DNA of 63,938 nucleotides, the filler included, from Reclinomonas americana ATCC 50394 (lineage: Eukaryota): assembly GCA_048213135.1 (NCBI GenBank). It is 6 parts of 2 records of this genome, joined end to end, with 100 filler letters (N's around TTAATTAATTAA, not from the genome) between each part and the next. Parts side by side here need not be neighbours in the genome. Positions count along the whole stretch, not along the records: positions 51,580 to 55,531 come from PS015394.1; positions 55,632 to 62,472 come from PS015394.1; 4 more parts are not named here. One strand, given 5' to 3'. The translations under genes were made by a program, and so were the position numbers. The notes beneath the pieces are model-generated. The model saw only the letters and a list, made by a program, of their open reading frames with translations. It was not told where the DNA came from and ran no database searches. Each line of letters begins with the position of its first letter. Position 1 is the first letter of the stretch. Shown in pieces: positions 52,445 to 62,472 of this stretch.

Positions 52445-53324
52445 TTACAGGCGCGCGGCGTGTTCGTCCTTATCGCGCAGGGCGACAGCCAGCTGAGCCT
52501 GCAGCTGCTCGTGAGCTTGCAGCAGCTCCGCGACTCGCAGCTCCAGTTGGGCATTCTTCTCCTGCTCCTCAGCCTTGCCTCGTTCAAGCACTGCGTTGGC
52601 TTGCTGCAACTGCGTGACGACGTCTTGGTGTTCTCGTCGCTGCCGATCCCACTCCCGCTGCTGCTCCACTCGCTCCTGCTGCGCTGCGGCAAGATCGCGC
52701 TGGAGTTGCGCAAGGAGTGCGTCCTTGTCGGCGAGCTGGCGTGCGACGGTGGGATCATCAACAGCCGACTGTGATTTACGAGAGTGCGGGGGAGACACGG
52801 AGCGGATGTGAGAAGTGAGTTTCACGAGCAACAAGAAGCAGAGAGAGGCACTCTCCTCCGTCTCACCTGGCGTGCTGGCACTGCATATTCGCCAGGAACG
52901 ACACACAAGGACAAACACAGGTGGTGGAGCGTGAGCACGAGCACAATATGCCAATAGACATAATAGAGATCATACCTGCAGGAGGCGGGGATCGCGGCTG
53001 CTGTTGTTGCTGTTGACGTGGTGATGCTGGTTGCGCAGCGAGGCGATCGAGCAACTCGGCCACTTGCTGCTTCCTGTTGTCACGTGCCCATTGAGCCGCC
53101 GTCTTGCCCTTCTTGTTGACCATGGGAATGAGGTCGGGGAAGCGAGTGGCGAGGAGTCGCACAACGGCTTCGTGGCCATTCGCGGCAACATAATGCAGAG
53201 CAGTGGACTGTGGATTGTAGTCACGGCCATTGGAGACCGCCCGCACCATCTCCGGCGGACATCGTCGCTCATCGGCAAGCAACCACTCCACCACGTGCAG
53301 TCGCCCATCGCCGGCAGCAAGCAT
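52445..53324 (-). CDS. Ankyrin/coiled-coil paralog without kinase domain (body A)
   Basis: Ankyrin and Q-rich coiled-coil exons homologous to the kinase copies. Similarity stops at ALRDKDEHAARL*, and no kinase exons follow in 51580-52444. Confidence 0.78.
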
Positions 53325-54059
53325 NNNNNNNNNNNNNNNNNNNNNNNNNNNNNNNNNNNNNNNNNNNNNNNNNNNNNNNNNNNNNNNNNNNNNNNNNNNN
53401 NNNNNNNNNNNNNNNNNNNNNNNNNNNNNNNNNNNNNNNNNNNNNNNNNNNNNNNNNNNNNNNNNNNNNNNNNNNNNNNNNNNNNNNNNNNNNNNNNNNN
53501 NNNNNNNNNNNNNNNNNNNNNNNNNNNNNNNNNNNNNNNNNNNNNNNNNNNNNNNNNNNNNNNNNNNNNNNNNNNNNNNNNNNNNNNNNNNNNNNNNNNN
53601 NNNNNNNNNNNNNNNNNNNNNNNNNNNNNNNNNNNNNNNNNNNNNNNNNNNNNNNNNNNNNNNNNNNNNNNNNNNNNNNNNNNNNNNNNNNNNNNNNNNN
53701 NNNNNNNNNNNNNNNNNNNNNNNNNNNNNNNNNNNNNNNNNNNNNNNNNNNNNNNNNNNNNNNNNNNNNNNNNNNNNNNNNNNNNNNNNNNNNNNNNNNN
53801 NNNNNNNNNNNNNNNNNNNNNNNNNNNNNNNNNNNNNNNNNNNNNNNNNNNNNNNNNNNNNNNNNNNNNNNNNNNNNNNNNNNNNNNNNNNNNNNNNNNN
53901 NNNNNNNNNNNNNNNNNNNNNNNNNNNNNNNNNNNNNNNNNNNNNNNNNNNNNNNNNNNNNNNNNNNNNNNNNNNNNNNNNNNNNNNNNNNNNNNNNNNN
54001 NNNNNNNNNNNNNNNNNNNNNNNNNNNNNNNNNNNNNNNNNNNNNNNNNNNNNNNNNNN

Positions 54060-55531
54060 TCGCGCAGGCGACCGAGGGTGGCAACCTGCGAGGATGGGAA
54101 GAAGAAGGATGAGGAGGAGAGTGGGAAAAAACAGGAGAGGGAGAGACACAGACCTCACTCTCAAACGACTCCAAAGTCCACGGTGCTTCGGGATCGAGCA
54201 CCTTGATGGCCACGTGCATCTCGCGAAGCAGAGTGATGAACACGGCACCTTGGCCACCCTCGCCGACCTTGAGGCGGGGTGAGAATGAATTGGTGGCTTG
54301 CACGATCTCGGGCCACTCGAAGCGCTGCACGGCGGTGTCGACTATGGAGAGTGGGTAATGGGAAGTGAGAAATGGGGTGAGAATGAAGGATGTTGAACAC
54401 TGAGATGAAGACAGAAAGAGGGCAAGAGACGCAGACCTTGAGTGAGGAGGAGATCCTGTCGCAGCTGGGAGATGAGTTGATCCTTCTCTTGCAGCTGCGC
54501 GGTGAGATCGTCCTTGTCGCGCAGAGCCGCAGTCAGCTGAGCCTGCAGATGGCCATGAGCTTGCTGCCACTCCGTCAGAGTCTGCTGCAACTGGGCGTTC
54601 TTCTGCTGCTCAGTGGCGTGAGCTCGCTGCCATTCCGAGTTAGCTTGCTGCAACAGGGCATTCTTCTGCTGCTCACTGGCATGAGCTCGTTGCCACTCCG
54701 TGTTGGCTTGCTGCATTTGGGCGACCTTGTGCTGCTCATCAACCTTGGCTCGCTCAAGCTCCGCGTTGATTCGCTGCAACTGGGCATTTTTCTGCACCTC
54801 TTCGGCCTTGCCTCCTTCGAACTCTGCATTGGCTTGCTGCATCTGAGCGATGATTTCTTCGAGATCTCGTCGCTGTCGGTCCCATTCCCGCTGCTGCTGT
54901 TGTCGCTCCTGCTGCGCTGCCACCAGATCGCGCTGCAGTTGCGCAAGGAGTGCGTCCTTGTCGGCGAGCTGCCGTGCGACGGTGGGATCATCAACAGCCG
55001 ACTGCATTTTTAACGAGAGACACGGAACGGATGTGAGAAGTGAGTTTCACGAGCAACAGGAAGCAGAGAGTGGCACTCTTCGTCTCACCTGCCGTGCTGG
55101 TGCTGCATATTCGCCAGGAATGACACACAAGGACAAACACAGGTGGTGGAGCGTGAGCACGAGCACAACATGCCAACAAACGTAGAGGTCATACCCGCAG
55201 GAGGCTGGGATCGCGGCTGCTGTTGCTGTTGGTGGCGTGGTGGTGCTGGTTGTGCAGCAAGGCGGTCAAGCAAGTTGGCCACTTGCTGCTTTCTCGTGTC
55301 GCGTGCCCATTGAGCCGCCGTCTTGCCCGGCCTGTTGACCATGGGAATGAGGTCGGGGAAACGAGTGGCGAGGAGTCGCACAACGGCTTCGTGGCCGTTC
55401 TTGGCAGCCCAATGAAGAGCAGTGGACTGGCTGTCATTGGTGACCGCCTGCACCATCTCCGGCGGACATCGTCGCTCATCGGCAAGCAGCCACTCCACCA
55501 CTTGCAGATGCCCATTCATGGCAGCCGTCAA
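54060..55531 (-). CDS. Ankyrin/coiled-coil/IRAK-Pelle-like kinase, body B (ankyrins to kinase subdomain IV)
   Basis: STALHWAAKNGHEAVVRLL, coiled coil, then QRFEWPEIVQATNSFSPRLKVGEGGQGAVF, VAIK, FESEVATLGRLR. Ends in GA, which joins C-CGT at 62472. Confidence 0.85.
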
Positions 55532-60138: not shown

Positions 60139-60518
60139 TTTCTTTGAGAGAAAACAACAGCAGCAGCTCTCTGTCTCTCTCACACACACACACTCTCTCT
60201 CTCTCTCTCTCTCTTTGCCTTCTCCTCACACACTAATCCGTATGCCTTCGTTGTTTATTCCGATTGTCCTGCTCCAGCGGACATACCACAAGACGTTCGT
60301 TGTGTTGTCGCCATAACTCGCGACGAGCAGAGATCAGTGGAGTGTGGATGGCTACATATCATATAACAAGATCTACCCTCGTTTTCTAACATGAGATTGT
60401 GTCAACTGCAAGCCAGCAACAAATCATTCCACCCGATCAAACATCATTCCTCGTTGACCCGCAAGGCCAGTGCATTCCTCTCGTGACTGCCTTTGACTCA
60501 TTCTCACTTACATTCATC

Positions 60519-62472
60519 TCAAAGCTCCAGCGTAAACTGCCCACACACCTCGCGCAGTGCACGCATCACGTCGAGCACCTCTTGCGAGGTCGGCCGATCG
60601 GGGCGCATGGTCATGCATCGCATGCCGAGCTCAAACATGGGCTCAGCGATGCGTGGTGTCCACTCGGCTCCACGATCGACCAGTTCCATAACGCGCAGCG
60701 AGGCAGGCGAGTCGTCCCATTCCACGGACCAATCCACGACGGTGGCCACGGGTTTGCCAGTGACCAGCTGCACCAGCACCACACCCACGCTATACACGTC
60801 GTGCTTGGGCTGTGGACGACGCACTCGCATTGCCATGGGGTCCATGTAATCCAGGGTGCCGGCGGCGGTTGTTGTCTGTGAGAGGAGAGAAGGTAAGAGA
60901 GGGAGGACAGAGAGAGAGAGAGANNNNNNNNNNNNNNNNNNNNNNNNNNNNNNNNNNNNNNNNNNNNNNNNNNNNNNNNNNNNNNNNNNNNNNNNNNNNN
61001 NNNNNNNNNNNNNNNNNNNNNNNNNNNNNNNNNNNNNNNNNNNNNNNNNNNNNNNNNNNNNNNNNNNNNNNNNNNNNNNNNNNNNNNNNNNNNNNNNNNN
61101 NNNNNNNNNNNNNNNNNNNNNNNNNNNNNNNNNNNNNNNNNNNNNNNNNNNNNNNNNNNNNNNNNNNNNNNNNNNNNNNNNNNNNNNNNNNNNNNNNNNN
61201 NNNNNNNNNNNNNNNNNNNNNNNNNNNNNNNNNNNNNNNNNNNNNNNNNNNNNNNNNNNNNNNNNNNNNNNNNNNNNNNNNNNNNNNNNNNNNNNNNNNN
61301 NNNNNNNNNNNNNNNNNNNNNNNNNNNNNNNNNNNNNNNNNNNNNNNNNNNNNNNNNNNNNNNNNNNNNNNNNNNNNNNNNNNNNNNNNNNNNNNNNNNN
61401 NNNNNNNNNNNNNNNNNNNNNNNNNNNNNNNNNNNNNNNNNNNNNNNNNNNNNNNNNNNNNNNNNNNNNNNNNNNNNNNNNNNNNNNNNNNNNNNNNNNN
61501 NNNNNNNNNNNNNNNNNNNNNNNNNNNNNNNNNNNNNNNNNNNNNNNNNNNNNNNNNNNNNNNNNNNNNNNNNNNNNNNNNNNNNNNNNNNNNNNNNNNN
61601 NNNNNNNNNNNNNNNNNNNNNNNNNNNNNNNNNNNNNNNNNNNNNNNNNNNNNNNNNNNNNNNNNNNNNNNNNNNNNNNNNNNNNNNNNNNNNNNNNNNN
61701 NNNNNNNNNNNNNNNNNNNNNNNNNNNNNNNNNNNNNNNNNNNNNNNNNNNNNNNNNNNNNNNNNNNNNNNNNNNNNNNNNNNNNNNNNNNNNNNNNNNN
61801 NNNNNNGAAGAGGGGAACCAAACAAACCTTGCCATCTGCAATCGACCGCGCAATGCCAAAGTCACCGAGACACGGCTCTAAGCGGTGATCGAGAAGCACA
61901 TTGGAGGGCTTGATATCGCGGTGCACCACATTGTTCTGCGAGGGAGGTGAGTGAGGCGAGGAACAAAGCATATTACACAACAGTGAAAAAGGAGAAAGCG
62001 AAGAGACTTAGAGAGACACGAACAGCACGAGAGCGACAAGGACAGAGGAGAGAAAAAGGGCACGGACAGATAGCACGGGCTACTCAGAGAGAGAACACGT
62101 GAGAGTGGAAGAGACAAGAACAACGAAAGAGTGCCGAGGAGAGAAGAGGAAGAGTACTATACCGAGTGCTCAGGTGACAGAGAGAGATGGAGGATGGCAT
62201 CCACATCGTGCAAACCTTGTGCAAGAATACCACAGCCTCGGCCAGTCCGAGACCAATCTGCACACGCTGCACGACCGTGAGTGGTGCACGACCGGCTCGT
62301 GGCAGTAGCAATAGATCCTCCAAGTTGGGAACTCTTTGTGCTTTCACAGTGAGACGATGATGGAGTGAGGGAGAAGGAGAGAGAGATGAAAACGCACTGC
62401 AGGGCCTTGTACACGAGACAGCGTGCCTTGTCGTCGCCCACCGAGTAGCCGACAAGAGGCACGATGCGACGG
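60519..62472 (-). CDS. Kinase C-terminal exons (segment D), probable continuation of body B
   Basis: [21 protein letters not shown] through [11 protein letters not shown] and GQFTLEL*. Near-identical to copy C. Confidence 0.87.

Follow-up and report, generated by a model that had tools for sequence, protein, structure and literature searches.

A tandem array of kinase genes is described here from Reclinomonas americana ATCC 50394 (GCA_048213135.1), in a stretch of 63,938 nucleotides (the window) along the whole of which all positions are counted. The array occupies 52445-62472 of the minus strand, in draft scaffold sequence of a eukaryote that is interrupted by 25 runs of N, and comprises at least four head-to-tail units of one intron-containing gene, the single complete copy of which (unit B) is predicted to encode an RLK/Pelle-type kinase fused to about four N-terminal ankyrin repeats and a long helix (about 160 residues) of heptad periodicity. 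This array is probably a lineage-specific tandem expansion of a soluble signalling kinase gene, whose ankyrin groove, helix and kinase would work together in the way proposed below, an account that we hold with moderate confidence. Kinases of the RLK/Pelle-IRAK type are the signalling engine common to innate immunity in plants and animals, and elsewhere they are considered rare and mostly inactive; here such an engine, probably active and under strong purifying selection, is multiplied in tandem in an apparent non-plant protist and joined, through a long coiled coil, to a cytosolic ankyrin module.

The first-pass annotation of this DNA, made from the sequence alone, had described head-to-tail paralogues with N-terminal ankyrins, a Gln-rich coiled coil and a kinase. 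Both parts of that description are upheld, as all 7 self-matches of the array are direct and none inverted, all units lie on the minus strand, and the three modules are complete in unit B according to the Pfam matches, the helix modelled with AlphaFold2 (AF2) and the kinase motifs. The limits drawn there, 52445 and 62472, coincide with the stop codon of unit D and with the last base ahead of a contig join.

Kinase domain and its family

The kinase domain of unit B (57328-58673; exons E4 to E8, Table 1) is followed by only about 10 residues before the end of the protein, and Pfam Pkinase was matched on E7 (3.7e-9) and E8 (3.2e-8). The domain is of the RD type and contains the Gly loop, the VAIK motif, the alpha-C Glu, HRD..N, DFG and a T-T-T cluster in the activation loop, and its Tyr gatekeeper, a residue typical of the RLK/Pelle family, stands in C-L-V-Y-K aligned with L-L-V-Y-E of BRI1. 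By these motifs the kinase looks catalytically competent. The ratios of non-synonymous to synonymous substitution (dN/dS), calculated between units by the Nei-Gojobori method, were 0.03 for the kinase of units A and B (218 codons, synonymous divergence dS 0.42) and 0.13 for that of units B and C (62 codons), at dS 0.39-0.42 throughout; the kinase is thus kept under strong purifying selection, and the ratio of 0.03 speaks for a functional domain.

The stretch preceding the kinase reads FEWPEIVHATDSFS in unit B and FEWPEIVQATNSFS in unit C. The hallmark of the RLK/Pelle family, as given in PMC10916322, is a pre-kinase helix with the TxxF ST motif, of the consensus FSYEELEKAT[D/N]NF[S/D], and unit B matches 7 of the 14 consensus positions, TxxF included; the agreement was judged from the sequence match, the helix being predicted from the consensus. 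The pre-kinase motif quoted in the first-pass annotation corresponds to this helix and TxxF hallmark.

Family searches were carried out exon by exon. In the PDB, the leading matches of E8 were SYMRK, BRI1, IRAK4 and BIK1, with E 5e-6 to 1.4e-5 and 28-30 bits (among the best 60 of 265 matches), and the next family, Aurora A, followed at about 24 bits, about 5 bits below RLK/IRAK. Exon E4 gave 18 matches at E up to 10, of which 16 were plant receptor-type kinases or IRAK1 (LysM, CERK1, lectin, BRI1-type, IRAK1, BIK1, Pto and SYMRK among them), the exceptions being a designed repeat protein at rank 1 and YabT. The four matches of E5 were all BRI1, with the LVY gatekeeper aligned, and the single match of E6 was IRAK1. 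The affinity to IRAK/Pelle and RLK kinases, earlier proposed from motifs, is supported by the PDB matches of four exons, for E4 from rank 2, after the designed protein. The kinase structures of ILK, TNNI3K and RIPK4/ANKK1 are present in the PDB, and none of these names occurred in the best 60 of the 265 matches of E8 or in all 18, 4 and 1 matches of E4, E5 and E6, respectively; the grouping with ILK, HH498/TNNI3K or RIPK4/ANKK1, which the first-pass annotation had named as the outcome speaking against its proposal, is absent from the PDB matches, and there is no ankyrin kinase among the best 150 relatives.

The HMMER search with E8 over 1.84 billion representative proteins resulted in 725 matches with E<=1e-3, of which 32 reached E<=1e-10, and identity was 33-40% for the best of them; the full spliced kinase domain matched 149 of the best 150 library proteins with up to about 117 bits per domain. 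Of thirty library matches considered by name, 24 are named proteins of land plants or charophytes, single ones come from Capsaspora ('TKL/IRAK'), from Artemia (a cluster that has an 'IRAK4-like' member), from Gefionella (a WD40-kinase) and from MMETSP (a transcript), and two are unnamed metagenome proteins. The land-plant matches include THESEUS1, malectin, LysM, CRK, LRR and U-box kinases, the charophytes are Chara and Closterium, and in the ESM Atlas the nearest clusters consist of Streptophyta kinases. In a second collection, searched for longer proteins, none of 538 candidates was matched by E8 at E<=1e-3, so that the proteins of this genome itself seem to be missing there. By these results the kinase is probably a divergent RLK/Pelle (IRAK)-type member of the TKL group, an assignment supported to the extent possible with searches by single exons.

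Many of the top library matches, among the best 150, come from plants and carry 2-6 kinase domains in a single gene model. These are probably tandem RLK genes fused in annotation, or else tandem-kinase proteins, and the summing of scores over their domains places them too high in the ranking.

Ankyrin surface, long helix and proposed mode of action

The ankyrin exon E1 was matched by Pfam Ank_2 (1.7e-20) and Ank (6.6e-17), its best PDB matches were DARPins, ankyrin-1/2 and NOMPC (among the best 60 of 304), and its single-sequence AF2 model consists of stacked helix pairs with a mean pLDDT of 68.9. Over three pairs of units the dN/dS of the ankyrin region was 0.63, 0.68 and 1.0. The repeats were aligned with one another by their G-H (or D-R) pair, and the binding face was defined as repeat positions 2, 3, 5, 13, 14 and 33, which we take to be those randomised in designed ankyrin binders (DARPins). 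Variable sites made up 13 of 24 positions on this face vs 26 of 146 elsewhere (Fisher p = 3e-4), and 16 of 30 vs 23 of 140 with a wider set of face positions (p = 5e-5). With such divergence of the face, the paralogues are left without a common conserved binding surface, and the ankyrin faces may either have different partners in each paralogue or be unconstrained; the fast change fits a recognition role and fits relaxed constraint equally well.

The exon E3 of unit B, with 23% Gln, is built of four 21-residue (three-heptad) repeats, encoded by a 63-nt internal repeat, has hydrophobic residues at 26 of 48 a/d positions with a periodicity of 3.5 residues, and was modelled by AF2 as a single helix over residues 6-166 (pLDDT 93.6), while no Pfam family exceeded its cut-off on this exon. 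The number of repeats varies, unit C having one more than unit B (a 63-nt indel) and unit D being shorter, and the dN/dS of the coiled coil is 0.27 between B and C. The complex prediction for two E3 copies scored 0.40 and one control 0.35, which is evidence neither for nor against a dimer.

According to the proposed mechanism, the ankyrin groove would bind a protein partner, different for each paralogue, and the long helix would form a coiled coil uniting two or more chains. Proximity drives trans-phosphorylation in IRAK4 and in plant receptor kinases, and the RD-type kinases brought together in this way could likewise phosphorylate each other's activation-loop Thr cluster, after which the activated kinase would signal onward. 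The array itself would be enlarged and reshuffled by unequal crossing-over and gene conversion, as its mosaic identity, the variable number of 21-residue repeats and the kinase-less edge copy suggest. If the ankyrin faces do diversify under selection, the array would offer a simple testable model of how a sensor and a kinase are combined and diversified, and would add to the evidence on how old the IRAK/RLK branch is; otherwise it would be a further lineage-specific TKL expansion.

Several points weigh against this account. The face positions were picked after the alignment had been inspected by eye, and the dN/dS of 1.2-1.7 on the face (vs 0.37-0.76 in the framework) rests on just 12-26 codons per pair, so that the excess over 1 is not significant and not established. 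The Glu of the APE motif, nearly invariant among protein kinases, is replaced by Met (D-P-M; 57640-57650 in unit B) in units A and B, the two copies in which it is visible, and for this reason catalytic competence is not certain. Oligomerisation through the E3 helix is a presumed step, and the E1-E2-E3 joins, above all the 14-nt micro-exon, are predicted ones. The abundance of plant RLKs in the libraries could bias the best matches, the PDB lists being less prone to it. In unrooted trees built of library matches only (67 rows in one and 25 in the other, with the window kinase added and rows of fewer than about 225-235 aligned kinase positions dropped), the window kinase is placed on a long branch in no strongly supported clade, and its amino-acid composition was flagged as deviant; its sole pairing is with one grass sequence (88 to 89/92), and U-box kinases, Gefionella and Capsaspora stand near.

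The strongest rival, unlikely in our estimate, is that of an innate-immune receptor array, put forward in the first-pass annotation with the ankyrins as sensors of an intracellular ligand and the coiled coil dimerising the kinase. Here the ankyrin domain of every paralogue would directly recognise a molecule of a pathogen or virus, or a host target that has been modified, and the IRAK-like kinase would set off the defence. In its favour, the kinase belongs to the same family as those of the animal TLR/IL-1 and plant pattern-recognition pathways, the tandem copies join a conserved signalling domain to a fast-changing ankyrin binding face, copy number and repeat number vary, and the window contains many WD40 and ankyrin genes together with a NACHT-like match at 18150-18542 that is sub-threshold for Pfam (E 0.006), which is weak context for the immune reading. 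However, most plant RLK/Pelle kinases act in development and not in immunity, the pattern on the ankyrin face is also expected from relaxed constraint, and no death, TIR or other immune adaptor domain was found by Pfam. Moreover, clustered repeat-domain TKL expansions are common in protists without a known link to immunity, and P. infestans has such clustered TKLs, one of its kinases bearing 15 ankyrin repeats at the N-terminus (PMC3019232). A fuller version, which we judge rather improbable, is an intracellular receptor-kinase repertoire of a unicellular, non-plant eukaryote where the ankyrin grooves would see non-self or altered-self, the coiled coil would oligomerise and the IRAK/RLK kinase would respond; were it true, IRAK/RLK would be an ancient immune module with a third kind of sensor, neither death-domain adaptor nor ectodomain.

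Gene model and layout of the array

The four units were delimited by tblastn of the spliced unit B protein against the window (Table 1). All seven introns of unit B are of the GT-AG type, short (66-272 nt) and CT-rich, and preserve the frame, and its splice sites recur in units A, C and D, including the AG and GT flanks of the micro-exon in C and D. Between units, no indel occurs in 771 aligned nt of E4, E6, E7 and E8, against 11 in 557 nt of introns 3-7, and E5 shows one indel per comparison, at the edges of N gaps.

Table 1. Units of the array and their exons (window positions)
Feature	Position	Strand	Content
Unit A	60519-62471	-	kinase exons only, E5 (partial) to E8; 5' part lost at the join 62473-62572
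Unit A exons	E5 (partial) 62471-62398, E6 62333-62216, E7 61935-61828, E8 60875-60519	-	placed by tblastn and AG/GT check
Unit B	57328-60031	-	sole complete gene; 8 exons, 650 residues and stop
Unit B, E1	60031-59467	-	about 4 ankyrin repeats with N-cap (residues ~1-170) and start of Q/P-rich linker
Unit B, E2	59371-59358	-	14-nt micro-exon; restores frame between ankyrins and predicted coiled coil
Unit B, E3	59266-58765	-	predicted coiled coil; Q-rich helix with 21-residue repeats
Unit B, E4	58673-58486	-	kinase
Unit B, E5	58417-58317	-	kinase
Unit B, E6	58248-58131	-	kinase
Unit B, E7	57858-57751	-	kinase; Pfam Pkinase
Unit B, E8	57684-57328	-	kinase; Pfam Pkinase
Unit C	54060-55850	-	start codon, ankyrins, coiled coil, E4, start of E5; then gap 53325-54059
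Unit C exons	E1 55850-55632 + 55531-55195, E2 55102-55089, E3 55001-54437, E4 54341-54154, E5 from 54085	-	
Unit D	52445-53324	-	truncated copy at array edge; ankyrins from residue 74, shortened coiled coil, stop
Unit D exons	ankyrins 53324-52976, E2 52880-52867, coiled coil 52768-52448, stop 52447-52445	-	

The joining of the ankyrins to the kinase in one gene bears on a further rival, by which the gene model is wrong, the ankyrin open reading frame (ORF) being a separate small gene and the coiled coil and kinase another. The E1 frame does stay open past the donor site, as a 225-residue ORF that crosses intron 1 and the micro-exon and ends at a stop at 59354. In units B, C and D the 3' half of intron 1 (within 59372-59466 in unit B), directly ahead of the micro-exon, is almost identical. 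However, the coiled-coil exon follows only about 85 nt beyond this stop, all three of these units keep the 14-nt exon along with strong donor and acceptor sites, unit D lacks a Met near the start of its coiled-coil exon, and ankyrins and coiled coil-kinase are co-duplicated in every visible unit, so that we consider separate genes very unlikely. The near-identical half of intron 1 may carry splicing signals of the micro-exon or reflect an alternative, retained-intron product.

The unit B product has a charged N-terminus, and the absence of a signal peptide or transmembrane helix, stated in the first-pass annotation, agrees with hydropathy, the one method applied (maximal Kyte-Doolittle mean over 19 residues 1.51, within the kinase or the ankyrins). 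N-myristoylation was considered as well, and neither M-G-R of unit B nor M-A-K of unit C fits the consensus.

The ankyrins are visible in three units (B, C and D), the coiled coil in the same three and the kinase in A, B and C, and in units A and C the visible exons are open and the splice sites kept. Identity of DNA between units is 84-93%, intergenic DNA included. The A-B junction is the only uninterrupted one, and since B-C and C-D span N gaps (56307-57298 and 53325-54059, respectively), the number of copies is at least four. The 5' end of unit D lies in a gap, and its stop codon falls exactly at the end of homology to the other units (about 52444); no kinase was found downstream of this stop by translation and by tblastn of the window. 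Unit D could be a kinase-less ankyrin-helix partner of the other units or a dead edge copy.

Five 100-nt blocks of the window (5663-5762, 32310-32409, 51480-51579, 55532-55631 and 62473-62572) are identical, each reading N44-TTAATTAATTAA-N44, and they are contig joins with a six-frame stop spacer and not sized gaps. The join at 55532-55631 conceals no sequence, because the ankyrin protein of unit C reads straight across it. Another interruption, of 883 N (60924-61806), lies inside intron 7 of unit A, where the remaining non-N sequence is 69 nt vs the 66-nt intron of unit B; this gap either is spurious or conceals whole extra units, in which case E7 and E8 come from different copies.

These interruptions could favour the view that the units are decaying duplicates or an assembly artefact, with haplotypes or collapsed repeats laid in tandem, as spacers and N gaps chain the contigs into the scaffold, unit B alone is complete, unit D lacks the kinase, and the 883-N gap stands within an intron expected to be of 66 nt. 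This is nevertheless highly improbable: the kinase dN/dS values at the dS given above indicate long-term selection on separate copies, the visible exons of A, B and C have no stops or frameshifts, the A-B junction is continuous, and the divergence between units, of 7-17% and of entire 21-residue repeats besides, is beyond what we would expect of haplotypes.

Identity is unevenly distributed along the units. The 5' flanks of B (60032-60489) and C (55851-56306) are 96% identical over 452 nt, vs about 87% in the exons, which suggests recent gene conversion or a conserved promoter, and dS varies by segment, from 0.19 in the ankyrins (B-C) vs 0.42 in the kinase (A-B). This mosaic among segments leads us to unequal crossing-over or gene conversion as its source.

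Known systems and surroundings of the array

The union of ankyrins, coiled coil and an IRAK/RLK-type kinase appears to be an undescribed combination. No ankyrin repeats were detected by phmmer, with 51 ankyrin proteins as queries, in the best 150 kinase relatives, while 38 of the 51 queries detected unit B as the positive control. Pfam found Ank in none of 33 kinase relatives scanned, mostly single-domain proteins or tree neighbours, the partner domains there being WD40, U-box, UBA, WAK/EGF, LRR, malectin, LysM and others. Conversely, the kinase Pfam domain was found in none of the 51 relatives of the ankyrin exon, all of them generic ankyrin proteins and many of them fungal NACHT/HET-ANK. The full-text literature search gave no ankyrin-coiled coil-IRAK/RLK kinase in the titles or abstracts listed, although the domain tables of kinome supplements could hold one.

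The window protein resembles IRAK1/IRAK4 in the kinase type (among the first PDB matches of three exons), TxxF, the Tyr gatekeeper, the RD type, the activation-loop Thr and in being soluble. It differs from them in that they have a death domain where this protein has ankyrins and a long coiled coil (Pfam found only ankyrin families on E1), in identity of only about 30-37%, in the Met of the APE motif and in the tandem array. Plant RLK/RLCK kinases (BRI1, SYMRK, CERK1/LysM-RLK and BIK1/PBL) provide the best library and PDB matches, SYMRK shares the end of the activation segment, G-T-x-x-Y-x-D-P, and tandem duplication is typical of this family. Unlike the plant RLKs, the window protein has by hydropathy no ectodomain or transmembrane helix and carries N-terminal ankyrins instead, its kinase falls within no supported plant subfamily in the unrooted trees, and its host is probably not a plant, judging by the tyrosine aminotransferase gene described below. 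The RLCK-IXb kinases, in PMC10916322, have a coiled-coil-like stretch ahead of the kinase as here; however, these are plant kinases with a C-terminal U-box and often an N-terminal Usp domain, and Pfam matched neither of the two in the window protein. Of the library relatives, P0097, P0109 and P0133 carry U-boxes.

Lineage-specific TKL expansions of protists, often clustered and with protein-interaction repeats, are a further parallel (PMC3019232), and the TKLs of P. infestans are described there as the kinases likeliest to be clustered. The same source describes PITG_06288 of P. infestans, with 15 N-terminal ankyrin repeats, as a member of the oomycete-specific subfamily OS1 and not an IRAK, and lists five 'IRAK' kinases, 4/5 with a transmembrane helix and 5/5 predicted to be inactive. 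Together with the Capsaspora 'TKL/IRAK' protein P0054, these five indicate that IRAK-class kinases exist beyond plants and animals. P0054 differs from the window protein in having LRR_6 and three kinase domains, and neither it nor PITG_06288 nor the P. infestans IRAKs, as described, unites ankyrins, coiled coil and IRAK-type kinase. IRAK is reported as absent from Dictyostelium in PMC1420674, and the Pelle/RLK-type transmembrane kinases as dominant in plants and charophytes in PMC10463195.

The animal families that combine ankyrins with a TKL kinase, namely ILK, TNNI3K and RIPK4/ANKK1, differ from the window protein in drawing no preferential kinase match and in having no long coiled coil between the domains. 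ILK and TNNI3K have the ankyrins N-terminal to the kinase, RIPK4/ANKK1 have the reverse order, and ILK is a pseudokinase without catalytic residues. Membership of the window protein in ILK, TNNI3K/HH498 or RIPK4/ANKK1, for which the layout of N-terminal ankyrins and then a TKL kinase recalls ILK/TNNI3K, is scarcely credible, as these names are missing from the PDB matches of E4, E5, E6 and E8 and from the best 60 of 304 matches of the ankyrin exon, no ankyrins occur in the best 150 kinase relatives, and the order from ankyrins to kinase and the presence of VAIK, HRD and DFG disagree with the domain order of RIPK4/ANKK1 and the degenerate catalytic motifs of ILK, respectively.

Other repeat-protein genes are found in the window. 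WD40 beta-propeller genes lie at 679-1293, 5764-6165, 10216-15501 and 62784-63938, the last ending 200 nt from the join beside unit A. Further ankyrin ORFs of the minus strand (34842-36161, 38445-39763, 43222-46989 and 49074-49970), with long GA/CT microsatellites between them, are not close to those of the array, as the sole tblastn match is 32% identical (35589-35858), and have no kinase attached. The region 16374-21283 (minus strand) contains large ORFs without Pfam families, the NACHT match mentioned above, which scores 16.9 bits where 26.7 is the cut-off, and, at 16374-16868, a WD40/pentapeptide ORF; all of this may represent a STAND NTPase-WD40 gene. Exons of a tyrosine aminotransferase at 2452-3293 (minus strand) are 60-71% identical to dictyostelid, chytrid, mucoromycete, cercozoan, Capsaspora and oomycete proteins, and two grass entries among the matches listed are 50% identical to one such exon.

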